From: Thelocarpon superellum
Lineage: Eukaryota
NCBI GenBank assembly: GCA_026025795.1
Contig: JAPEUG010000001.1
Coordinates: forward strand, 62,001 to 126,000
Direction of reading: 5' to 3'
Length of the DNA stretch: 64,000 nt
Part shown: piece by piece, positions 1 to 60,277 of the stretch
Layout: each line of letters starts with the position of its first letter
How positions within the stretch are numbered: the first letter of the stretch is position 1
The notes under the pieces: model-generated
The model's input: only the letters and a program-made list of their open reading frames with translations
Told to the model about the DNA's origin: nothing
The model's database searches: none
Position numbers and translations under genes: made by a program

Positions 1-1952
1 TGTACTAGTTGAATAGTGTAGCCACAAAGGAGTCCTTTGAGTCTAGGACCTGCCCTTTGCTGTCTATGGCACAGCTGGTCAACTGCTTGACTCTATATGT
101 AGGGATGTGATGTCCCCCAAATGCCATTACCTGTGGGGCAGGCTTGTCACAGTCACATAGCTGCAGCTCCTTAGCTAGCAGATGTGACACAAAGTTTTGT
201 TCCACTCTAGAATCAATCAGTGCTGTAGCTGTGACTGTCCTGTTGTCTTGCAGGATCTTAATTAGGACAACCAATTATCTTGTGTCAGTCTCAGAATAGT
301 GACTTAGTAGCACCAACACAATGTCTACTAAGCCCCTACTTTTGGGTTGTGTGCTAGCTTCTCTTGCTTCTTACTACAGCAGTCTTTCTCCTTATGGCCC
401 TTGTAGCTGCACTAGTTGCATTTGCTACTAAACCTCTTTGACATTGTATAGGTCAAACTGCTGCTATGGTCCTAGGGCTTAGTTGATGTGGATGAGGTGT
501 TTGATGTTGACAGGGTGGATGTGTGGTTCCATGTACAGCTTCCTCCTGTTGACTGGTTTGGCAGGGATTGGCCTAACCATGATGTTGATCAACTGCTTCT
601 ACACAGCTGTAGTGCTGATCTGTGGCCCTGTTCAGGCCCTGAGCCTAGCCCTAGGGCCCTGCTTGCAGCCTAAGGGTTTAGGAGTTGCTGAACCTTGGAT
701 GCCTCTACTATTAGGCTCTCTCAATTGGTAGGGTGTTTGTCCTTAGTGTCAAGTTCTTGTTGTATCTCTAGTAGTAAGCTAGCCCATAGCACTCTAACAC
801 AAGCTGTGTTGTCAATAGGGTCTATGAGGTCCTCTAGTGATTCCAGGTAGGATACAAAGTGAAATAGGTCCTGTCCTGGCTTCTGCTTTGCTCTGTAGTA
901 TGACTGTGCTGCACTGTCAGCTTGGGTGTTACTAGGGTTGATCAAAAGTTGGAAGAAGTCCTTGACTTCCTTCCAGGTTGTCAGTGGTGTGGCCCCTGCT
1001 TGCTTGTATACAAACTGGTTAACTATACCAGGTCCTAGCCAGTTGCTTGTGAGGGTAAGCTGGTCCTCATCTGTCTTATAGGTGTATGGCTTGGTTTGTA
1101 GAAGGTGTTTGACACAGTAGACCTAGTATTGCTACTTGTTGTAGGTGTGACTGTTGTAGTAGGGCAGATTACCCACATCCCTGTCCTTCTCCTCTCTGTG
1201 TTGCTTCTGTGTAGTGCCTAAGGATGTGGATGAGTCAGGTGAATGGGGTTGTTGTTGAGAAGCATTCCTAGCTGTCTGCTCAAGTGCAGTGTCAAGCTGT
1301 GTTTCTCTAGAGGTCTCATTGGTGGTTTCTCTAGGTGTGGTGTCTGTTACACAGCTCTGCCACCTAGCAATCTCTTGCTCTAGTTTTTGAATATCAGCTT
1401 CCTCCTTGAGGACATGCAGCTGTTCTTTGAGGGTCTGCTTGTGTTGTAGGTAGGATATCATGGCTGTAGGTGGTGTAGGGGCTTCTGTGCTTGTTGAGGC
1501 CTGCTGGATCTCATAGTCCTGTTGGCTGTCTGCTAAGATCTCAGTGTTGGTGTTGATGTTGTTGATCCTGGTCTTGGTGTTGGCTCTGCTTGACCCCTGC
1601 ATAGCTTCTAGGTAGGATGTTGCTTGAGTCTCCACTATGGTGCCTGTCTAACTGGTTCTAGCTAGCACTCTGCTAGGTATCTGAGTGTTCAAAACTGTGA
1701 CAACAAAGGCCTACAGCTAGGTGGAAACAGTAGATGTAGTCAATGGAGTTGGCTCTGTAGCTCCTAGGGCTCACAGACCTATAACTAGCCTCCTTGTGTT
1801 ACTTGAGTTAAATGCTGGGGCTCTGCTAGCTTGTAGTGGGACTTGGTTTATATACAGTGTGCTAGGTCATGTGCTGTATCATGTGACTATCACATGGCTG
1901 TCATGTGATCACTCTTATCCTCATGGCAAGGTGTGGAGCTCCTAGCCTCACA
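1..1952 (-). mobile_element. Degenerate Ty3/Gypsy LTR retrotransposon (5' LTR, gag, zinc knuckle, aspartic protease), truncated by the window edge
   Basis: Minus strand shows gag-like fragments (1132..1635, 721..945), a CX2CX4HX4C knuckle 'C N * C S Y K G H K E K D C' at 379..420, and a retropepsin-like 'ALIDSRVEQNFVS' (decayed DSGA) in 5..274. Many in-frame stops. The probable gag ATG reads ATA at ~1636-1638. Confidence 0.85.
1696..1952 (-). repeat. Putative 5' LTR (257 bp) of the Gypsy element
   Basis: Bounded by inverted termini TGTGA (1696) and TCACA (1952), with a TATATAAA box on the minus strand at ~1846-1853, just upstream of gag. The second LTR would lie outside the window, so it cannot be confirmed here. 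Confidence 0.7.
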
Positions 1953-15482: not shown

Positions 15483-16818
<1,336 letters not shown>

Positions 16819-19315: not shown

Positions 19316-21262
19316 TCAGGAAGATCCCGAAGCCGTGGCTTTCTGTCGATACTGCTCGAAATTGCGGATTCGAGGGGGTCGTGGCTCGCCACCGCCATGA
19401 TCGCCGCTCCCTGGCTCGCCTCCCTCCTTTCTTGGTCGCCTTTTCGCCTCCCATTCTTCTTCTTCTGCGGCGATCATCGAGTGGAAGGTGGGTTGTTGCC
19501 CTCGAGCCAGGTAGATAGGCGCTTGTTTCTTCTGTGCGACAGCTTCGGTGATGAGAATGTACTTGATTGACGAGCCTGCGGTGAGGTCATGTTAGTCGGA
19601 GTCTAGTGGGGAGGCAGGAAGATTAGAACGCCATGTACCAGGTGCTTCAAACATGGCGTCACCTAAGAGCCGCTCCAGCACTGTTCGTAATCCTCGAGCG
19701 CCGTTGCCCATCCCTAGCGCCGTCCGAGCGATCTGCCTCAAGGCCGCGCTGGTACATCGGAGCTCCACACTGGACAACTGAAACAGCTGTTCGTACTGCC
19801 GCATCAGGCTGTTGCGGGGCTCGGTCAACACCCGCACTAACGCCTCCTCATCGAGAGATGCGAGGGCAGTGGTGACGGGGATTCGTCCCACCAGCTCCGG
19901 GATCATGCCATATCGTCGTAGGTCATCTGGCTCGACCAGGTCCAGCGCGTTCCGTGGCGAGGTCGCGGAGCCCTCAGCATTATCGGTGAAGAAGGGTAGA
20001 TGTGTTTGGAAGAGCTGTTCTTCGCCGTCGATGGTGGTGTTAGTTGGGTCTGCATTGGATGCGCGCACCGGCTGCCCGAAACCGATGCTGCCGCGAGAGA
20101 CGCGGTCCATGACGATCTTGTGCAACCCAACAAAGGCTCCGGTGAAGATGAAGAGAATGTTATCCGTCCGCACGTTGTATATCTCATTCTTGCCATGGCC
20201 CGTTGCGCCGGTTGGCGTGCTGCCCATTCCTCCTCCGGGGGCGGTTCCGTGGCCCGTAGGCGGTGACGATCGGCCCGCACCGCGCTCTTGTTTCGCGTTG
20301 ACCTGCAAGGTGGTGCCTTCGATAATCTTCAACAGCGCCTGTTGCACGCCTTCTCCACTCACGTCTTTGCCGTGGTTGACTTTCGCGGTGGCAATTTTGT
20401 CGACCTCATCGAGGCAGATGATGCCTCGCTCAGCCCGTGCAACGTCGTGATTGGCCGCAGCCAGCAGACGCTGCACGCAAACATCGGCATCCTCACCAAT
20501 ATAGCCAGCTTGGGTGAACGGAGTGCAGTCGGACATGCTGAAGGGGACCTCGAGCACGCGCGCCAACGTTCTAGACTATCAGTTAGCCCCTTGTGTACGT
20601 GAATCCCACGCCGACGTACGTACTTGGCCATGAGCGTCTTGCCGACCCCTGAAGGACCCAGCATCAGGATGTTGGACTTTTCGATTGTCAGAGGCATGTA
20701 GTCCATCAGCGGTGCTGGAATCACCGGGTCCTGGGTGGCTGGTCTCCGTGAAGCCTGGGCCTGCACGGTTCGCTGCTGTCCCGGGAACTCATCTGCTAGG
20801 ACTGTTGGATCAGGAACGGTACCATATCTAGATACGTTCATGCTCACCCTCGACCGGATGCCGCTGGCCCATCTCCCTCCGGGCCTGCTGCTGAAGCAAT
20901 TGCTCCTCTTCCTCATCACGTCGTTGGAGCTCTTGGATGCGTTGATAGTGATTATATACGGCGACGCTCAGGACTTTCTTGGCCCGCTCTTGCCCGACGA
21001 CGAATAAGTCCAGGTGCTGTTTCAGCGCTTTCGGTGTCAGTCTTGGTGCGCCGAAGATGGACGCATCGCCGAGCGGGCCGGACGTGGGGAGGCCAGGCTC
21101 ATAAGAGCCGGTGTACGGCTGGCTGGTGAAGTCGGACCGATGGAAATCTGACGTCGGGGGAGCAGATGTTACAGCGGAGGAATGAAGACCGCGGTAGATG
21201 GATGACAGGGCGAGGTAAGATAACCGTGCCTGGTGGGACACGGTCGTGGAGGTGCTAAGCAT
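19316..21262 (-). CDS. MCX1: Mitochondrial ClpX AAA+ unfoldase (spliced)
   Basis: [35 protein letters not shown] (Walker A), [39 protein letters not shown] and GARGLR. Confidence 0.93.
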
Positions 21263-47438: not shown

Positions 47439-48461
47439 TCAGTTGGCCGCGGCAGTCACGACGGGTAGAGTTCCGTGGACGCCATGGCCGATCATCTCGA
47501 TGGGCGCGCGGCGGATGATGCCACCCGTGGCTGGCAGCGTGGTGGAGTGCATCAAGAAGATATCCACCTCGCGCGCCGCTTGTCGGCCCTCGTTAATGCC
47601 CCTGCGCGGAAGCGATGAGTGAGGGAGTGGGAGAGGGCCATGTGAGTGACTCACCACACGATGAGCGACTGCCCTCGACGGCAATCGCCGGCGGCAAAGA
47701 CGCCCGGGAGCGACGTCTTGTACATGCCCGGCGGTGTCTTGATGTTCTTTCGTCCGTCTTTTTCGATCTCATTCCCGAGGAGACGGTCTTCCGGCCCAAG
47801 GAAGCCCATGGAAAGCAGGACGAGATCGGCGGGGAAGAACTGCTCGCTCCCCTCGACCTGCTTCATGTCCCAGCCCCCGCTTGCACTTTTCGTCCACTCG
47901 ACGCGCACCGTGTTGATGCCCTTCACCTTGCCCGTGCCATCGTCCACAAAGTCCTTGGACATGACGCAGTACTCGCGCGGGTCCTTGCCGAGATGGTTCT
48001 TCACCTCGCTGTGGCCGTAGTCGACCCGGTAGATCCGTGGCCATGTGGGCCACGGGTTGTCCGCCGCACGAGTGGGCGGCGGCTGGGGCAGCAGCTCGAA
48101 ATTGGTGACCGACGTCGCCCCGTGGCGCACCGACGTGCCAATGCAGTCATTGCCCGTATCGCCACCACCAATCACCACCACATCTTTCCCCTTGGCCGAA
48201 ATGTACGTCTCGTCCTTGAGCCGCGAGTCGAGCAAGGACTTGGTGTTGCGATGGAGGAACTGCATGGCAAAGTGGATGCCGTCGAGGTTGCGATTCGGGA
48301 TGGGGAGGTCACGCGCCACCGTCGCCCCCGTGGCGATGACGACGGCGTCGTGCTCGGCCCGGAGCTCGGCCAAGCTTCGATCCTCGCCCACCTGCACCCC
48401 CGTCACGAACGTCACCCCTTCGGCCGCCATGAAATCCACCCGGCGCTGCACCACGTTCTTG

Positions 48462-48493
<32 letters not shown>

Positions 48494-51400
48494 GAGTCCG
48501 CCGATGCGGTCCGCCCGCTCGAACACCGTCACGCTATGCCCCGCCCGGTTGAGTTGATCGGCCGCGGCCAGGCCGGCCGGACCCGAGCCGATGATGGCGA
48601 CGGTCTTGCCCGTGCGCTGGGCCGGCGGCGTCGGCACCATCCAGCCCATCTCGAAGCCCCGGTCGATGATGGCGCACTCGATGGACTTGATGCCGACCGG
48701 GTCTTCGATGATCCCAAGCGTGCACGCCCCCTCGCACGGTGCCGGACAGACTCGCCCCGTCTATGATTGGATGTCAGCCGGCGTGCAGAATGGGAGAAGG
48801 GTGTGAGCACGAACGAATTCGGGAAAGTTGTTGGTGAGGAGCAGGCGATTCAGCGCGTCGCGCCACTGGTTCTGGAACACCAGCTCATTCCACTTCGGGA
48901 TGATGTTGCTGATGGGACAGCCCGTGTCTGACTGACAGAATGGGATGCCGCAGTCCATGCACCGTGCGGCCTGGTACTTGATCTCATCCTCATTCAGTCG
49001 GCTCGACAGCTCTTGCCAATCACGCGTCCGGGTCTTGACATTGCGATACTTCTCGCTACGTCGGGCATATTTCATGAAACCCTTCGTCTTGTCCAGCACC
49101 AGGGCCGAGCGTTTCTTCTCTGCCTGTGCGTCACCAACGCTCTCCTCGATGTCCGTCGTGCCCTTATCCTGTTCGTCTTTGCCCTCCTTCTTGATCGACT
49201 TCTCGTGCGGCTCGCGCACCTCCGACCCGGGAAGTAGCGGCAATGGGTATGCGGCCTTCTTGGCCGCCTCTGCCTCGACCGCTTGTTCCGCCAGCACGCG
49301 CTTGTAGTCGGTCGGTAGCACCTTGACGAAGCGCGGGAGCGCGCGGTGGAAGTCCTGCAGGACCCGCGCGGCCAATTCGGAGCCGGTGTAGTGGTGATGA
49401 TCCTCGATCAGGCCGCGCACAAAGGCAATCTCCGCTGGCTCGTCGACCGCCGAAAGCTCGACCATCTCCATGTTGACCTTGGTCTCGAAGTCTTGCGTCA
49501 TGTCGAGCACGTAGGCGATGCCACCGGACATGCCGGCCGCGAAGTTGCGTCCCGTTGAGCCGAGGATCAGCACGCGTCCTCCCGTCATGTACTCGCACCC
49601 GTGGTCGCCCACGCCCTCGACGACCGCCGTCGCGCCCGAGTTCCGCACCGCAAACCGCTCCGCCGCCACGCCTCGGAAGAAGCAGGTTCCGCTGGTGGCA
49701 CCGTACAAACAGACATTGCCGACCAGCACATTCTCCTCCGCCTTATACACGGCCGCTCGAGGAGGGTAGATGAGCAAGCGGCCCCCCGAGAGCCCCTTCC
49801 CCACGTAATCATTGGCATCGCCTTCAAGCTCCAGCGTGACGCCCGGAGCGAGGAAGGCACCGAAGGATTGACCTGCTGAGCCCCGGAGATTGACGTGGAT
49901 TGTATCATGCGGGAGTCCCGCCTCGCCGAATTTCTTGCTGATCTTGTAGGAAAGGGAGGCCCCGATGGTGCGATCGGTGTTGATGACATCCGCCTCGATC
50001 CGACTCGGAAGGCCTTTCTCGAGCGACAACTCCGATTCGGCGATCAGCTTGTTGTCGAGACGCACGTGCAGCTTGTGATCTTGCTTGCGCACGTTATATG
50101 TCGCCACCCCCGGTCGCAGTGTGTGAGCCGGTGTCAGGATCAGCGACAAGTCGACGTTCTCCGTCTTGGCGGTGCGCAGGTCTTCGCGTACACGGAGCGC
50201 CTCTGAATGACCCACCATCTCGTTGATGGTCCGATAACCCAGCTTGGCCATGATCGCCCTCATTTCATTCGAGATGTAATAGAAGAAGTTGATGACATGC
50301 TCTGGAGTCCCCTGAAACTTTGCTCGCAGTGCAGGGTCTTGACTTGCGATGCCCACTGGACACGTGCTGTGAGAGACGTCAGCGTTGGAAGGATGAAGTG
50401 AGATGAAGCGGTGCGTGTGAAAAACGCGGTGCAACTGATCGGGATTGAACCAGGGCAAGAACACCATGTACGCGACAGTGCGTCGAAGCGAGCCGGGACG
50501 AAAGGAAGCGGTATATGGACAGAGTCACGTAGTCGACGGAAAGAGTCGATCAATATAGTGGATGATAACATTGCAAAGAGAGTGTGGTATTCGTACTGCA
50601 ATAGTGCATTGGACGAGTGCGAGGGAATGGACCATGAGACGAGATGGTACGTACTTGAGATGGCAATTCTGCGTGATCAATCGGTTGGCTAGCTGGAACT
50701 GACCCCCGCTGACCTCGATTGCCCGATACTGGCCAGATTCGACGTCGTCGACTTTGAATGGTCGGGCGTCATGGCTGTAGTGCTGCTTCTGGAGGGTCAT
50801 TCTCTTTCGAGGCAGGAGCAGATGGTGCTGGAATTTGGCCGATCCTTTGCCGAAATATACGACGTCCTGAGCCACGTACGGTCCAGTGCTGCCCAAGCTT
50901 AGTGGGACCCACGCTTCATCGACCTCCGTGACCGAGATCCCACAGCTCAAGGCGAGATCCTTGGCATCCTTCACAATCTGCTTGTGCTGTGGTGTCATCT
51001 GAAAGAATCGGTAGGCGTTGCGCGACTTCACATAGGCTCCGTCGCTGTCGACCAGGCCGGCTATGACGGCTAGACGCACGTCCTCGTCCGCCTCCATGTA
51101 GACGCGAGGAATGCCGCCGCTCTTATCGTTGAGCAGACCAAGGTCTCGGAGGCCTCGCAAAACGGGATTCCAGGAGAAGCCAGACCCTCGGGCTGGGCAC
51201 ACAATCGACCATGTGAAGACATCCACTTTGGTGATATGCCCACCTCTCATGACGGTCCCAGACGGATGCCCTCGACTTTCTGACAACGCCAATTCACGCG
51301 TTCCATCAGGTCTGCCGCTGTTGAGTCGATCAACGTACCGCTGCAGCCAGACTTGAGTCTCGCGATCCGATCCTGCAATGCTAGTCGAGCCAACGCAACC

Positions 51401-53123
51401 ATCGCCAAGCCATAGCCCTAGGAAGTATGGATCGACAGGAAACGGGGAATGGACGGGGTTGACAGCGTATCCGAAGGTCAGAGGAGCTCGATAGAGCTTC
51501 AGATGACTGCGCTTCACCACCTTTGAACACATTGCCTCGTACTCCTGCACTGTCATCGAGAACTCGTCGCTGTCCCGTACCACCCAGGGGTCGATCAGGC
51601 GATGACTTTCACTAACGAGGATCGAATGGGCAAGCTGTGCCTGTGCAGCAGTCTTGAAGTTCCGGGATATCTTCCGTACACCAAGACACACGCAGCCATG
51701 ACCGTCCAACGATGTGCGGACTGTAGCGAATCGATCAACGGCGGTCGTGTCGAGATTGATTCGCCATGAATCAATCGCCGGCGTTAGTTCATTGTCTTCC
51801 ATGTTGTCATCGTCAAGTGTTGCCAGAGTTGGTGTGAGCGGTGGCGAAGTCATGGGGGATCCCGCAACGATCTGCACGTTGCCAGACTCATCACCACTAT
51901 CGCTAAGTGGAGGAGAGCTTGGTAAAATGTGGGATGACGGGAGCCAACCTTTTGGAAGGAAAGGCCGCTGCGTATCGGTCCTTGGCTGCGAGCGTGGGAT
52001 CTCGAATTCCAGAAAAGGCTCAGAGCCAATGTCAAAGATCTCACCCGAGAAGTCGACCTCGTCGCTCGAGTTGGTCGTTGGATTGACTGACTCGTTCAAG
52101 TCGACGGCGTCGTTCGAGTCGACAGGGTCATCGTTCGAGGCGATCGCATGATGCAAAACACCCACCTCAGCCACTCGATGCAGGTCGTCGTCCCTCGCAG
52201 GATGCATTGTCTCTAGAACAAATGCAGGGTGATTCCTCAGCTCTCGATCACTAATGATCTTCAGATACTGATCGACGCGATCCGAATGATCTTCGTGACC
52301 ACGATGATAGTGCTGGTCAAGGACGGCATCGACATGCTCCTGGGTAACTCCAAGCTCGGGGGAGTCATCGCCATCGACAAGATCGCGATAGAATGCATCA
52401 CTCCGGATGTCCAGAGAGAGATCGACAGCTTCCTTCCCGGCATGCTCTCGACGGCATCGAGTGAACCAGGTGACAGTCCTACCGGTGATGGAGGGCGTCG
52501 TCCCAGTCATGATGAGGGTGAGGCGGTGGTCAGGAGTGCACTGGAACGAGACCCGTTGGCGCGAGTCGAAGTCGTGATAGGTAATCTCCTTCAACGGTCC
52601 ACTCGCGGGCGGCGACGCACCGATGCAGAGCGTCGGACGACTGCCGGCATCGTACAGGTAATCGCCAATCTCCACCTCGTCCACGCGCTTCTCCCCGGTC
52701 GTGGTGCGAACCAGCGTGGAGGAAGCCAGGCATTTTCTCATCATGATGCACCCCATGGCAATGAGGGGGGTCGTTGCAAACCCCCACTCTTCGGCGCCCA
52801 GGAGACAGGCGATGGCGACGTCGCGACCCGTGCGGAGTTGGCCGTCTGTCTGCACGACGACCCGACCGCGGAGGTCGTTGAGCACCAACGTCTGGTGCGT
52901 CTCAGCCAATCCAAGCTCCCAGGGGAGCCCCGCGTACTTGATGCCGGTCCAGCGAGACGCCCCCGTGCCACCGTCATGTCCCGAGATCAAGATATGGTCG
53001 GCCTTGGCTTTGGCCACTCCAGCCGCCACGATCCCAACGCCCGTCTCAGACACCAGCTTGACAGAGACGCGCGAACGCGGGTTGGCGCACTTGAGGTCGT
53101 AGATCAGCTGCTTCAGATCCTCG

Positions 53124-53158
<35 letters not shown>

Positions 53159-56100
53159 GAGACCGACGCCAGGGGTCGAGTGGCGCGTGCGGGCGATGGG
53201 CTTGGACACCTTGTGCCCGGGCAGCTCGCCACCCTCGCCGGGCTTCGCGCCCTGGGCCATCTTGATCTGAAGCTCGTCCGCGTCGGCCAGGTAGTTGGAC
53301 GTCACACCAAAACGACCCGAGGCAACCTGCTTAATGGCGGACCGCATCGTGTCCCCGTTGTCCATGGGCAGACTCCGCTCGGGGTCTTCACCACCCTCGC
53401 CCGTGTTGGACTTGCCGCCGAGGCGGTTCATGGCCACGGCCAGGGTGGAGTGGGACTCCATCGAGATGGACCCGTACGACATGGCTCCGGTGCAGAAGCG
53501 TCGCACAATCTCCGTCCATGGCTCGACCTGGTCGATGGGCACGGGGATGCGGTCCTCAAAGTTGAAGTCGAGCAGGCCGCGCAGGGTGCAGGCCTTGATC
53601 TGTTCGTACTCGGAGAGGGCGTAGGCCTCGTAGGACTTGTCATTCTTCGTGCGCACCGCGTCCTGCAGGTTGGCGATGCTGACGGGATCGTTGATGTGCG
53701 CCTCGCCGCCGTCGCGCCAGTGATACTCGCCCGACTCGGCCAGACCCGGAATGGAGATGATGGGGCGCGAGGGGAAGCCCTTTTCGTGAAAGGCAAACGC
53801 ATCTTCGGCGATGAACTCAAAGGTCAAGCCGCGAATGCGCGTCGCCGTCCCGGTAAAGCATCGGTCGACGACGCTGTCGTCGACCCCGAGGGCCTCGAAG
53901 ATCTGCGCGCCTTTGTAGCTCTGCAGGGTGGAGATGCCCATCTTGCTCATGACCTTGAGGATGCCTCCGTCGCACGAGTACTTGTAGTTCTCGATCACGG
54001 CCTGGTCGGAGAGCGGCTTGCGGATGAGGTTCTCGTGATTCATCTTCAAGATGCACTCCATGGCGAGATAGGGGCAGATGGCGTCGGCGCCGTAGCCCAA
54101 CAACACGCACATGTGGTGCACCTCCCGCGCCTCGGCGGTCTCGAGGACGAGGGCGGCCTGGGATCGCCACTTGTTGCGCACTAGATGGTGGTGCACCAGG
54201 CCACAGGCCAAGAGCGTCGATACGGGCACGCGATCGGGCCCGGTCGCCCGGTCCGACAGGATCAGGATCCGGTCGTTCTGGGCGATGGCTTCCGTGGCCG
54301 CCTCGCAGATGCGATCCAGAGCTTTGATGTAGCCGGGGACGCCATCGTCCTTGGCAAAGGTGATGTCGATCGTCTTGACCGTCCAATCGGCATGGAGTGT
54401 GGTAATCTGCTGGAGCGCCTTGAATTCCTCCAAGGCGAGCACGGGCGACGGCAGCAACAGTCGGTGGCACTGCGACGCGTCCATCTCGAGCAGGTTGCCC
54501 TGCGGGCCGACGTAGCACTCGAGGGACATGACGATGGCCTCGCGGATGGGATCGATGGGAGGGTTGGTGACCTGGGCAAAGAGCTGTCGGAAATACTCAT
54601 ACAGCAGACGCGGCTGTTGTGCCAGACATGCGAGCGGTGCGTCGTTGCCCATGGAGCCGAGCGCTTCCTTGGAGTCCGAGGCCTATGGGATGGTCAGCGG
54701 ACCGCGGGTGAGGTACGGGAGAAGAGGGCGATGGACGGGACATACCATGGGGCCCAGGAGCAAGCTGACTTGTTCAAGGGTGTAGCCAAACGCTTTGAGG
54801 CGCGGGTCCACTTGCAGGCGCGTCCCATCCAGCACGCTATCGAGCCGCACGCCATCGTCGCGGAGTTGCTGGTAGATCTCTGGCAGCGACAGGAGCTCCT
54901 TTTCGAGCCACGATCGGAAGTCCTGGCGATGGGCCACGGTCTCCTTAAGCTCCTTGTCGTCCACGATGCGACCCACGAGCGTATCAACGAGAAGCATCTT
55001 GCCGGGCTGCAAGCGGCCTTTGAGGACGATGGATTCGGGGTTCAACAGGATAGTGCCGACCTCGGAGGCGCAGATGATGCGGTCGTCGTCAGTGACATAA
55101 TATCGGCAGGGCCGCAGTCCATTTCGGTCAAGGTTGGCGCCACAGTAGCGGCCGTCGGCGAAGGTGAAGAGTGCCGGCCCATCCCAGGGCTCCATCATAC
55201 AGGCGGCCCACTCGTAGAAGGCCGCCTTGGCCGGGTCCATGGTGGGATTGTCTTGCCAGGCCTCGGGCACCATCATCATGACGGCTTCGGGGAGCGAGAG
55301 CACGCCGTTGATGACGAGCAGCTCGAGGACGTTATCGAAGGCCGCGGAATCGGATCCGCCATCCTCGACGATGGGATAGAGCTGATCGAGCTCCTCGGCG
55401 AAGAGGTGGGATCTCAGAACGCCTTCACGCGCGCGCATCCAGTTCTTGTTGCCCCGCAAGGTGTTGATCTCACCTGGTCACGGGTCAATGAGACGGCAGT
55501 CGGAAGAGGTGTGACGCGCGGGTCACGACTCACCGTTATGTGCGGCCCACCGCAGCGGCTGCGCGCGATCCCAGCTGGGGAAAGTATTAGTAGAAAATCG
55601 CGAGTGAACAAGCGCAAAGTGACCTTCATAGTCTACTGAAACCAAGTCGTGATAGTATTGATACACTTGAACCGGCGCCAGCTGTCCCTTGTACACGATG
55701 TTTTTGTTGCTGAGCGAGCAGAGATAGAACCAATTGTGGAGACCGATGGTGTGGGTGGCACGCTTGCGTAAGACGTAGAGCTGGCGCTCGAAATGCTTCT
55801 CGTCAAACGGTGCCCCCTCAGGTTGCTGTGGCTCGCGACCGAGCCCGTAGGCAGACTTGAGCACCACGAAGGGCTGGAGGATGAGAGGCTCGCGCGACAG
55901 AGCGGCGGGGCCGAGTAGGGTCGAATCACGGGGTACCTCACGCCAGCCCAATACCCGTAGGTCGAGTGAGTCGGCGATCTCCTCAAAGGTCTGCTGTGAC
56001 TCCTGGAGGGTCTCGGGCTCGGGCTTGAAGAAGAGGTTGCCCGCGGCGTACTGGCCCTGCGGCGGGAGGCGGATGTCGTTCTCACGCGCAAAGTTCTTGA

Positions 56101-56541
56101 TGAAGAACTTGTGAGGGATGGAGGTCATGACGCCGGCCCCGTCACCGTCGCGGGCATCGGACCCAACGGCGCCACGATGGGTCATATTGCAGAGCAGATT
56201 CCGAGCTGAGGCACAAACAGATGAGCTAGGGGGGAGCCGGGGGTGGTGGGGCCGGTGCTCGCTACTCACCATCGCTCACAATCTTATGGCTCGCCTTGCC
56301 CTTGATATGGCTGTATTGCCCGGTCAGCAAGCGATGCCACCGTGATGACGAGCGTGAGCACTCACGCAGCGAAGCCGACGCCACAGGCGTCCTTCTCGAG
56401 GGCGGGGTCATAGAGGGCTTGCTTAACCGGGAGAGCGCCGGCCCAGGACCGGTTCTCCTCGGTGTTCTGGTACTCGTAAATGGAGGTGGGTTCCTCAGGC
56501 TGGATGGCTTGCTCGATGAACTCATTCACGCAGGGAGGCAT
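47439..56541 (-). CDS. GLT1: NADH-dependent glutamate synthase (GOGAT), intein-containing, spliced
   Basis: EKDACGVGF (Ntn Cys), [46 protein letters not shown][intein]CHLN|TCPVG (3Fe-4S), GXGXG repeats, RCMDCG, GSGPAG, IGGGDTG and [10 protein letters not shown]. Confidence 0.97.
50367..50654 (-). other. 288-nt spliceosomal intron of GLT1
   Basis: GTACGT donor, GCTGAC branch point and CAG acceptor. Its removal restores [15 protein letters not shown]. Confidence 0.88.
50666..52732 (-). mobile_element. GLT1 intein with LAGLIDADG homing endonuclease (689 aa)
   Basis: In-frame insertion between CIMMRK and CHLN. Starts CLASSTLV (block A), with TPDH (block B), LGLWLGDG (block C) and IAGLVDSDG (block E). 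Ends RLITQN followed by Cys+1. No stops or frameshifts. Confidence 0.95.
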
Positions 56542-58081: not shown

Positions 58082-58291
58082 CCCACCCACCCGAGTACTT
58101 AGTTGCCCACACAACAACTCGACGATCGTCTTTAACTCTCACTCAACGCTTTTCCTCACAACTTACAACGTGCAACTTGCAGCGGCTGGAACTCTCACCG
58201 TTGCTGCGATTGACCAGGCCCTGCTAGAGCTGGTTTTCACGCAAATTCTACGCTCAAAGCAATCCTCACTTCTCTTCATCTCCTCACTGCT

Positions 58292-60277
58292 ATGGCGCCC
58301 GCTATCGGTATCGATTTGGGCACCACCTATTCGTGCGTCGGTGTCTTTCGCGATGATCGGATTGAAATCATTGCCAATGACCAGGGCAATCGCACCACCC
58401 CATCCTTTGTTGCCTTCACCGATACCGAGCGTCTCATCGGTGATTCGGCCAAGAATCAAGTTGCCATGAACCCCTCCAACACCGTCTTCGACGCCAAGCG
58501 CCTGATCGGGCGGAAGTTCAGCGACGCCGAGGTCCAGGCCGACATGAAGCATTTTCCCTTCAAGGTGATCGATAAGGGCGGCAAGCCCGTCATCCAGGTC
58601 GAGTTCAAGGGCGAGACCAAGACCTTCACGCCCGAAGAGATTTCGTCCATGGTCCTGACCAAGATGCGCGAGACGGCCGAAGCCTACCTCGGTGGCACGG
58701 TGAACAACGCCGTCGTCACGGTCCCCGCCTACTTCAACGACTCGCAACGCCAAGCTACCAAGGACGCTGGTCTCATCGCCGGCCTGAACGTGCTCCGCAT
58801 CATCAACGAGCCCACCGCGGCCGCCATCGCCTACGGTCTCGACAAAAAGGCCGAGGGAGAGCGCAACGTGCTCATCTTCGATCTGGGTGGCGGTACCTTT
58901 GATGTTTCGCTCCTGACCATCGAGGAGGGCATCTTCGAGGTCAAGTCGACGGCCGGCGACACGCATCTGGGTGGTGAAGACTTTGACAATCGTCTTGTCA
59001 ACCACTTCGTCAACGAGTTCAAGCGGAAGCACAAGAAGGATCTTACCAGCAACTCGCGCGCTCTTCGTCGGCTGCGCACGGCCTGCGAGCGTGCTAAGCG
59101 CACCCTGTCGTCGTCGGCTCAGACGTCCATCGAGATCGATTCACTGTACGAGGGCATTGATTTCTACACCTCCATCACTCGTGCGCGCTTTGAGGAACTC
59201 TGCCAAGACCTCTTCCGTTCCACCATGGAGCCGGTAGAGCGAGTGCTCCGCGACGCCAAGATCGACAAGTCGTCGGTGCACGAGATCGTCCTGGTTGGTG
59301 GATCCACGCGTATTCCCAAGATCCAGAAGCTCGTGTCGGACTTCTTCAACGGCAAGGAGCCCAACCGTTCAATCAACCCCGACGAGGCAGTGGCATACGG
59401 TGCTGCCGTGCAAGCCGCCATCCTCTCGGGGGACACCTCATCAAAGTCGACCAACGAAATCCTCCTCCTCGATGTCGCTCCCCTGTCGCTCGGTATCGAG
59501 ACGGCTGGTGGGGTCATGACGTCGCTCATCAAGCGCAACACGACCATCCCAACGAAAAAGTCCGAGGTCTTCTCCACCTTCGCCGACAACCAGCCGGGCG
59601 TCTTGATCCAGGTCTTCGAGGGTGAGCGTGCCCGGACCAAGGACAACAACCTGCTGGGCAAATTCGAGCTCACGGGTATCCCCCCGGCGCCGCGTGGCGT
59701 GCCCCAGATTGAGGTGACGTTCGACGTGGACGCCAACGGCATCATGAACGTGTCGGCGTTGGAGAAGGGCACGGGCAAGACCAACAAGATCGTCATCACC
59801 AACGACAAGGGCCGTCTGTCCAAGGACGAGATCGAGCGGATGCTGGCGGAGGCCGAGAAGTACAAGGAAGAGGACGAGGCGGAAGCGTCGCGCATCTCTG
59901 CCAAGAACGCACTCGAGTCTTACGCCTACTCGCTCAAGAACACGCTGGCTGACCCCAAGGTCGACGAGAAGCTGGACGCGAGCGACAAGGAATCGTTGGA
60001 GAAGGAGATCAAGAAGACAATCGACTGGATCGACGAGAGCCAGCAAGCCACCAAGGAGGAGTACGAATCGCAACAGAAGGAGCTCGAGTCGGTCGCCAAC
60101 CCGATCATGATGAAGTTCTACGGGGCCGGCGGCGAAGGTGGCGGAATGCCCGGTGGTATGGGCGGCATGCCCGGCGGTGGGCCCGGTGGATTCCCCGGCG
60201 GTGGGCCTGGTGGGTTCCCCGGCGGTGCTGCCGGCGGCGAGGACGAGAGTGGACCAACGGTCGAGGAGGTGGACTAA
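58292..60277 (+). CDS. HSP70: Cytosolic Hsp70 (SSA type), intronless
   Basis: [40 protein letters not shown] repeats and C-terminal GPTVEEVD. Confidence 0.98.

Follow-up and report, generated by a model that had tools for sequence, protein, structure and literature searches.

The question raised by this locus is how a GLT1 gene, encoding the fungal NADH glutamate synthase, came to carry a long in-frame insert with a homing endonuclease (HEN), and whether that endonuclease has been kept or is being lost. The locus lies on the 64,000-nt stretch of DNA analyzed here (contig JAPEUG010000001.1, positions 62,001 to 126,000; hereafter the window, in whose own numbering coordinates are given). The insert is a new allele of the described fungal GLT1 site-a intein family, and its host lineage is new to that family. 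We consider it very probable that it is a canonical class 1 bifunctional intein which is old, mostly inherited, and still in possession of its nuclease. The gene and its insert are arranged as follows.

~47445-56541, minus strand: GLT1 gene (fungal NADH glutamate synthase), by host match.
52733..56541, minus strand: GLT1 N-extein in several exons, 92% identical over 649 amino acids (aa) to Sclerophora and Chaenotheca GLT1.
50666..52732, minus strand: GLT1 site-a intein of 689 aa (P0001), by junctions, motifs, and fold.
50655..50665, minus strand: start of the C-extein, 11 nt covering the codons of Cys+1, His, and Leu and two bases of the Asn codon, by sequence.
47445..50665, minus strand: GLT1 C-extein in several exons, end approximate, by host match.

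The insert spans 2067 nt and is an open frame of 689 codons that runs from Cys1 to the terminal Asn689, with CIMMRK before it and CHL after it on the minus strand. Alignment of the host protein to an intein-less Chaenotheca GLT1 (P0386) ends at residue 1189/1190 and restarts at residue 1193, past a short exon piece and an intron, and the in-frame insertion is missing from orthologs, 106 of the 120 nearest GLT1 clusters being empty at site-a. All of the splicing residues are present (C1; block B T66 and H69 within TPDH, residues 66-69; N689; C+1), as are both nuclease motif helices, LGLWLGDG (D444) and IAGLVDSDG (D564). The initial annotation had called a full-length LAGLIDADG intein in GLT1 from the sequence alone, and this call stands, including the endpoints, the splicing residues, and the placement at a known site. 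No other locus within the window matches an allelic intein. The residue before the terminal Asn is Gln688 and not His. A penultimate His is common in inteins, although not obligatory; among 37 allelic inteins this residue is His in 17, Gln in 6, and Ala in 5, with Ala also in the published Debaryomyces and Meyerozyma clusters. Since the position is variable across the site-a family, Gln688 does not bar the insert from membership.

A search for longer relatives returned 65 proteins, of which 29 are GLT1 precursors; in 28 of these, which include the clusters of the published Debaryomyces and Meyerozyma inteins, the insertion point is the same at both junctions, while the remaining one lacks its N part. 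In total 37 site-a alleles were gathered, and the junction is also identical in the F. fujikuroi row of the supplement of PMC5784728. A metagenome scan further yielded at least four fungal loci among the 80 listed, one of them a GLT1 intein (L001) and three CHS2 inteins (L002-L004), the latter 35-45% identical to the Sclerophora GLT1 intein; none of the loci listed is from Lipomyces. The window intein is 48% identical to the Debaryomyces cluster (607 aa) and 44% to the Meyerozyma cluster (553 aa); its best identity among the 29 allelic inteins is 60% (P0115), and that to Sclerophora amabilis is 57%. As had been supposed, it is not near-identical to a described allele. Published GLT1 inteins are listed for D. 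hansenii, P. guilliermondii, P. anserina, and P. nodorum (PMC1635734), for C. carpophila (PMC5056185), and for F. fujikuroi (PMC5784728), the last source giving totals of 5 GLT1 and 4 CHS inteins; the P. guilliermondii (Meyerozyma) intein is reported to be polymorphic within its species (PMC1508164). The description of GLT1 inteins as known from a few scattered ascomycetes nevertheless understates the family, which is far more widespread, so one further allele is less novel than it had seemed. Our literature search for inteins in Lichinomycetes found no paper, but the Sclerophora precursor is present in NCBI. In three GLT1 precursors (P0029, P0030, P0032) the reading stops at the same point within the intein in an intron-like manner; the window intein is uninterrupted.

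The anatomy of the intein can be read from alignments of the allelic inteins and from a predicted structure, and divides as follows.

52448..52732, minus strand: Hint N-terminal part, aa 1-95, with Cys1, block B Thr66/His69, and Cys93; 0 of 36 conserved columns deviate.
52166..52438, minus strand: insertion of four helices, aa 99-189, characteristic of the GLT1/CHS2 intein clade (model, moderate confidence).
51758..52165, minus strand: acidic, Ser/Pro-rich, mostly disordered linker, aa 190-325 (model and alignment).
51443..51757, minus strand: Cys-rich subdomain, aa 326-430, with C347, C349, and C402 (alignment of allelic inteins).
50768..51442, minus strand: double LAGLIDADG homing endonuclease domain, aa 431-655, with D444 (51401-51403), K537, D564 (51041-51043), and K643 (profiles, alignment, structure).
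50666..50767, minus strand: Hint C-terminal part, aa 656-689, ending in Gln688-Asn689 (alignment, structure).

An AlphaFold2 model built on a 57-row alignment has a mean predicted local distance difference test score (pLDDT) of 76, mostly above 90 at both ends and in the nuclease region, and below 50 at aa 179-223 and 242-325 of the disordered linker; in it the Hint fold is built from both ends of the intein. The top ten Foldseek matches are all PI-SceI chains (E 1e-15 to 4e-13). With VIA-align the whole model (1..689) matches the Prp8 intein 6mx6 (Z 20.7, root-mean-square deviation 1.8, 139 residues aligned), and model residues 421-648 match the nuclease domain of PI-PfuI 1dq3 (Z 16.1, root-mean-square deviation 3.2, 176 aligned); the nuclease domain also matches I-DmoI (Z 13.6). 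In profile searches the Pfam matches are weak, at E 4e-4 for LAGLIDADG_3, E 2e-3 for Hom_end, and E 0.26 for Hint_2, none of them reaching its gathering score; NCBIfam profiles gave no match to the intein, the PDB sequence match is to the nuclease region of PI-SceI (E ~1e-3), and the Atlas structure clusters for the intein are generic LAGLIDADG/intein only, all <0.9. The check by hidden Markov model that had been proposed for the locus gives these weak matches, but the predicted structure clearly matches inteins. A structure search with the four-helix insertion (aa 99-189) gave no convincing look-alike, and the linker is both the most variable stretch of the family and the least GC-biased part of the intein.

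Residues T66, D68, H69, K537, D564, K643, and N689 are invariant in the 37 site-a inteins, and the window intein matches at each of them and at Cys1 as well. D444 is kept in 33 of 37, with one allele carrying Glu, as published for M. guilliermondii, and three rows not inspected. C93, C349, and C402 occur in 37 of 37 allelic inteins and C347 in 36, and together these four cysteines may form a zinc site. At conserved HEN columns the window intein deviates in 4 of 92, against a median of 7 in the other 36 alleles. By residue conservation the nuclease thus looks undecayed, and the annotated retention of the acidic residue in both LAGLIDADG motifs (D444 and D564) is borne out.

How the element came to reside in this host is best addressed by comparing the intein with its exteins. 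In the intein tree (65 rows) the window intein is nested within the GLT1-a inteins as sister to the Sclerophora intein (Shimodaira-Hasegawa-like approximate likelihood ratio test, SH-aLRT, 97). In the extein tree (36 rows) the window pairs with Thelocarpon (SH-aLRT 98) within a 10-row clade (98) that includes Sclerophora and to which we gave the label "Lichinomycetes-like". A pairing of the window extein with Sclerophora held only when the empty relatives were left out; with them, its partner is Thelocarpon. Intein distances rise with extein distances over the 30 occupied alleles (Spearman rho 0.78, a value reached in 0 of 2000 permutations), and no pair has inteins that are unduly close given the distance between its exteins. 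The comparison of intein and extein trees suggested earlier thus lends no support to transfer, and the proposed horizontal acquisition finds none in a sister intein whose host falls in the same clade. The intein is present in 10 of the 120 nearest GLT1 clusters and absent from 106; in 2 the reading runs into an intron at the site, and in the remaining 2, P0393 (Piccolia) and P0399 (Caeruleum), gaps in the NCBI gene models omit residues at the intein site and may hide an intein or an intron. The simplest reading of these sequences is old residence in the lineage with many losses in relatives. As a separate observation, the two Meyerozyma clusters P0137 and P0140 differ by 0.009 changes per site in their exteins and by 0.52 in their inteins, a ratio of 55 as opposed to 3-9 in other close pairs, which may reflect allele replacement or fast decay.

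Base composition had suggested a foreign element. The intein is indeed less GC-rich at synonymous third codon positions (GC3s) than its exteins, at 0.62 (416/670); the N-extein exon beside it has 0.845 (528/625; Fisher p 5e-20), and the C-extein exon that follows has 0.76. However, the gap recurs with the L003 CHS2 intein (0.68 vs 0.87-0.91) and is reversed at the low-GC locus L001 (0.51 in the intein vs 0.48), and low GC3 is therefore rejected as proof of foreign origin.

Were the element to function as its relatives do, the GLT1 pre-mRNA would be spliced of its spliceosomal introns and translated into a precursor of ~2800 aa, from which the intein would excise itself by an N-S shift at Cys1 aided by Thr66/His69, attack by Cys+1, and cyclization of Asn689, restoring CIMMRK-CHLNTCP. 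We take Cys+1 to be a ligand of the 3Fe-4S cluster of GLT1, so that enzyme function would need splicing. The freed nuclease, a PI-SceI-like double-LAGLIDADG enzyme, would presumably cleave, at the insertion site, GLT1 alleles that lack the intein, and repair would copy the intein in; a retained nuclease would imply that homing into such alleles still goes on, be it within a population or between closely related ones. The splicing chemistry, the cleavage, and the homing are all inferred from known families. An undecayed nuclease after long vertical descent would point to continued access to empty alleles.

Three other explanations must be weighed against an old, mostly inherited intein with its nuclease kept. 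That the insert is removed at the RNA level, or is an artefact of assembly, is hardly credible: at its borders there are no GT..AG ends in any of 9 registers, which speaks against the RNA-level removal raised at the outset, and it bears a complete Hint fold with its splicing residues at a junction shared by 28 other precursors. A contig of sequencing run X1, which may be the source of the window, moreover spans the N-junction with 0 differences to the window, and intein pieces identical to the window recur in runs of a second study (242 and 256 nt in X2, 212 nt in X5; 0 differences). Recent horizontal entry from a lower-GC fungus would account for the GC3s contrast (0.62 vs 0.76-0.85) and for the empty state of the nearest exteins, and it is nonetheless improbable, since the best identity to any allelic intein is just 60%, the sister intein sits in the same host clade, the window intein/extein distance ratios (3.4-6.4 outside yeasts) include no low outlier, and the GC3 gap recurs in L003, several other long frames of the window themselves having GC3 of 0.64-0.68. 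The principal rival, which we regard as unlikely although well ahead of the other two, is that the intein splices while its nuclease is dead or decaying, the element being fixed and in the loss phase of the homing cycle. It draws on a terminal branch longer than that of the sister, on an expanded disordered linker, on 11 departures from the family consensus with one at an invariant column, and on an intron 11 nt from the site that alters the local target in the window lineage; it is opposed by the open 689-codon frame, by the retention of both Asp and both conserved Lys residues, by the fact that HEN deviations are fewer in just 6 of the 36 other alleles, and by an intein/extein branch-length ratio resembling that of other pairs.

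Several observations do weigh against the inherited, active intein that we prefer. The window branch is longer than that of Sclerophora in the intein tree (0.45 vs 0.26), the linker is expanded, and F627 replaces Leu at an otherwise invariant HEN column, all of which is compatible with early relaxation of constraint. The comparison of nonsynonymous and synonymous divergence (dN/dS) that had been proposed for the endonuclease was run against L001, the sole allelic DNA, and synonymous divergence proved saturated (proportion of synonymous differences, pS, 0.77-1.0), so that dN/dS says nothing on recent selection. No empty allele of the species represented by the window was seen in the contig joints listed; among these, 15 of 75, none skips the intein, and contigs show presence, not absence. 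Lastly, inheritance requires several losses, since the intein is missing from the nearest exteins (Thelocarpon, Sarcosagium, Chaenotheca), and for the same reason an old transfer among Lichinomycetes-like fungi could still be part of the history.

The immediate surroundings of the intein raise a question of their own, as the C-extein is interrupted almost as soon as it begins.

50367..50654, minus strand: spliceosomal intron of 288 nt, predicted from DNA (GTACGT ... CTGAC ... CAG), starting 11 nt behind the intein.

Taking this intron out restores the conserved host reading CHLNTCPVG. To place it among other fungi, 139 GLT1 cluster representatives were reduced to 83 by removing 50 NCBI gene models, 5 yeast sequences, and 1 partial protein; judging from internal starts and read-through tails, the 83 kept proteins are probably unspliced reading frames. 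Host reading is lost at the intein site in 16 of these 83 frames, as against 2 breaks over residues 1200-2075 (875 codons), where in addition one frame ends at a contig end and six read through a conserved last intron. Fourteen of the 16 broken frames stop at the site and so cannot show later introns, and two are of unknown occupancy. In the 24 proteins examined, codon-compatible GT donors lie at -1, 0, +6, +7, +9, +11, and +14, with three further frames at +16; this gives eight different intron offsets around the site, from -1 to +16 nt, mostly inferred from protein read-through and confirmed by DNA at +11 (the window) and +9 (L001, 7786 onward). Breaks at the site are found in 8 of the 18 occupied alleles, as against 8 of the 65 that appear empty (Fisher p 0.005, in rows that are related to one another).

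P0126-P0130, P0134-P0136, P0462, P0465-P0467, P0471, P0473, P0478, P0495, P0019, P0021, P0183: frames with an intron at the site, by protein read-through.

PRP8 is known to have introns close to intein sites (PMC1508164; PMC3749507), such introns in Anaeramoeba have been interpreted as shields (PMC10710043), and intein-primed intron gain has been proposed (PMC3749507; PMC10710043). Our literature search found no report of introns at the GLT1 intein site or of so many offsets, although the primary GLT1 papers (Butler, Goodwin, Poulter) may already remark on flanking introns. The crowded intron positions make intein-primed intron gain testable on one gene across many genomes.

Beyond the allelic inteins, there is a CHS2-like subclade of 9 rows (support 98 in the intein tree), whose members occupy several unrelated host proteins. 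A SNF5 insert (P0144) has both junctions and splits the match to solved Snf5 at residue 394, which is Met there and Cys in P0144. Both junctions are likewise present in the inserts of Sel1-repeat proteins (P0186, P0187, P0496). A second GLT1 site, site-b in the 4Fe-4S region, is seen from its two sides in different proteins (P0252, P0031, P0499), and Cys stands at that position in 0 of 162 stored sequences with an intact motif. The kinesin-5 insert P0190 shows the C-junction only, and in the CHS2 intein of L003 Cys+1 stands where the Candida enzyme has Val. The SNF5, Sel1-repeat, kinesin-5, and GLT1 site-b inserts are all metagenomic or run-derived proteins. Our literature search found no paper on inteins in SNF5, Sel1-repeat proteins, kinesin-5, or GLT1 site-b, and the primary GLT1 papers may already note the CHS2 Cys+1. 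P0497 is listed with P0190 as a kinesin-5 insert, again with the C-junction only. The Diaporthe citri GLT1 (P0143) carries a site-a intein that clusters in the CHS2-like subclade, apart from the rest of the GLT1-a inteins; host genes may have exchanged inteins, or the gene model may be chimeric.

Further relatives have no exteins at all. Among 113 matches, 19 are Lipomyces proteins of this kind, from five species.

P0003-P0016, P0022-P0025, P0027, P0181, P0182, P0323-P0326: Lipomyces stand-alone copies.

Sixteen full-length copies were used, with the partial or truncated P0012, P0022-P0025, and P0027 left out. Of these 16, 15 have Gly at position 1, 11 keep the block B His and 7 the terminal Asn, and all 16 keep D444, K537, D564, and K643 (NCBI gene models). 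The helical insertion is missing from about half of the copies, and some (P0010, P0015, P0323) carry a remnant of the GLT1 C-extein at their end. The copies group in a single clade (100) nested within the GLT1-a inteins. The tree suggests a horizontal origin of this clade from Pezizomycotina, which we do not claim, given that a grouping with yeast inteins is not rejected by the approximately unbiased test (p 0.157). Within one strain the copies are spread over four contigs or scaffolds (locus-tag prefixes V1506, POJ06), which argues against a single cluster. Our literature search found no description of stand-alone GLT1-intein derivatives in Lipomyces. Other fungi offer comparable cases. P0026 (Dissoconium aciculare) looks like a separate stand-alone derivative, and is one of nine apparently stand-alone or fused fungal derivatives without Cys1 (with P0028, P0188, P0191, P0199, P0201, P0208, P0232, and P0248); P0222, P0226, P0235, P0240, and P0246, which served as outgroup only, are stand-alone Hint and LAGLIDADG proteins of 441-447 aa with the Cys pattern of the clade.

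The allele itself is of modest interest, being one more homing endonuclease in a family described since 2006, here extended to a Lichinomycetes-like host. The 37 site-a alleles, with distances that track those of their hosts, bear on the persistence of a homing nuclease through long vertical descent. The family-level leads, namely the Lipomyces copies, the new hosts, and the crowded introns, are supported by sequence and more interesting than the allele. We tentatively combine them into a wider picture, somewhat less likely than not to hold, of an old inherited lineage of active nucleases with an intron-gain hotspot at its site, an escape of HO/WHO-like type in Lipomyces, and an invasion of unrelated proteins by the sister subclade. 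At the hotspot, introns would arise or move through repeated breakage and repair instead of just serving as shields of empty alleles, and this would place them at no fewer than eight offsets within 17 nt, enriched in occupied alleles and including that of the window at +11. In Lipomyces the intein would have escaped its host to become dispersed, multi-copy, non-splicing endonucleases with catalytic residues intact, an independent HO/WHO-like origin. The sister subclade would have invaded SNF5, a Sel1-repeat protein, kinesin-5, CHS2, and a second GLT1 site, all at positions lacking a native Cys, with Cys+1 replacing the host residue. The Lipomyces copies would offer a further natural route from intein to nuclease beside HO/WHO, and their diverged nucleases probably have different targets. 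Elsewhere in the window, long frames at 15527-16420 (minus strand), 19595-20575 (minus strand), and 58214-60274 (plus strand) resemble GAPDH, a ClpX-like ATPase, and Hsp70, names that we assign presumptively from motifs, and would be ordinary fungal neighbors.

Set against known systems, the window intein is closest to the published GLT1 (GLTi-a) inteins, with which it shares the host, the site R/K|C-H-L-N, the architecture, the length range (553-682 aa in those published, 689 aa in the window), and the LAGLIDADG nuclease. It differs from them in its Lichinomycetes-like host lineage, in having the longest linker of the set compared, in its penultimate Gln, and in the intron 11 nt downstream. 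The CHS2 inteins of Podospora and others belong to the same clade as the GLT1 inteins, as published (PMC5784728), yet they occupy a non-allelic host and fall in a separate subclade together with the SNF5, Sel1-repeat, kinesin-5, and GLT1 site-b inserts. PI-SceI (VDE), the VMA1 intein of S. cerevisiae, is the best structural match over the whole window model, at ~13-20% identity and with another host and target; the window intein is distinguished from it by the added helical insertion, the long acidic linker, and the four conserved Cys. The window intein is not HO/WHO-like, as it is embedded in GLT1 with its splicing residues in place. Available excerpts of the two papers on HO/WHO (PMC7282813; bioRxiv 10.64898/2026.08.13.744650), neither of which mentions GLT1 or Lipomyces, describe stand-alone, intein-derived, non-splicing LAGLIDADG genes. 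The Lipomyces copies appear to be of this type, in that they stand alone and, in NCBI gene models, have mostly lost the splicing residues and kept those of the nuclease; unlike HO/WHO, they descend from a GLT1 intein, are scattered over scaffolds where an element of that type is expected to lie in clusters beside a host gene, taking the place of its 3' half, and mostly have no C-terminal zinc-finger extension, stopping at the end of the intein.

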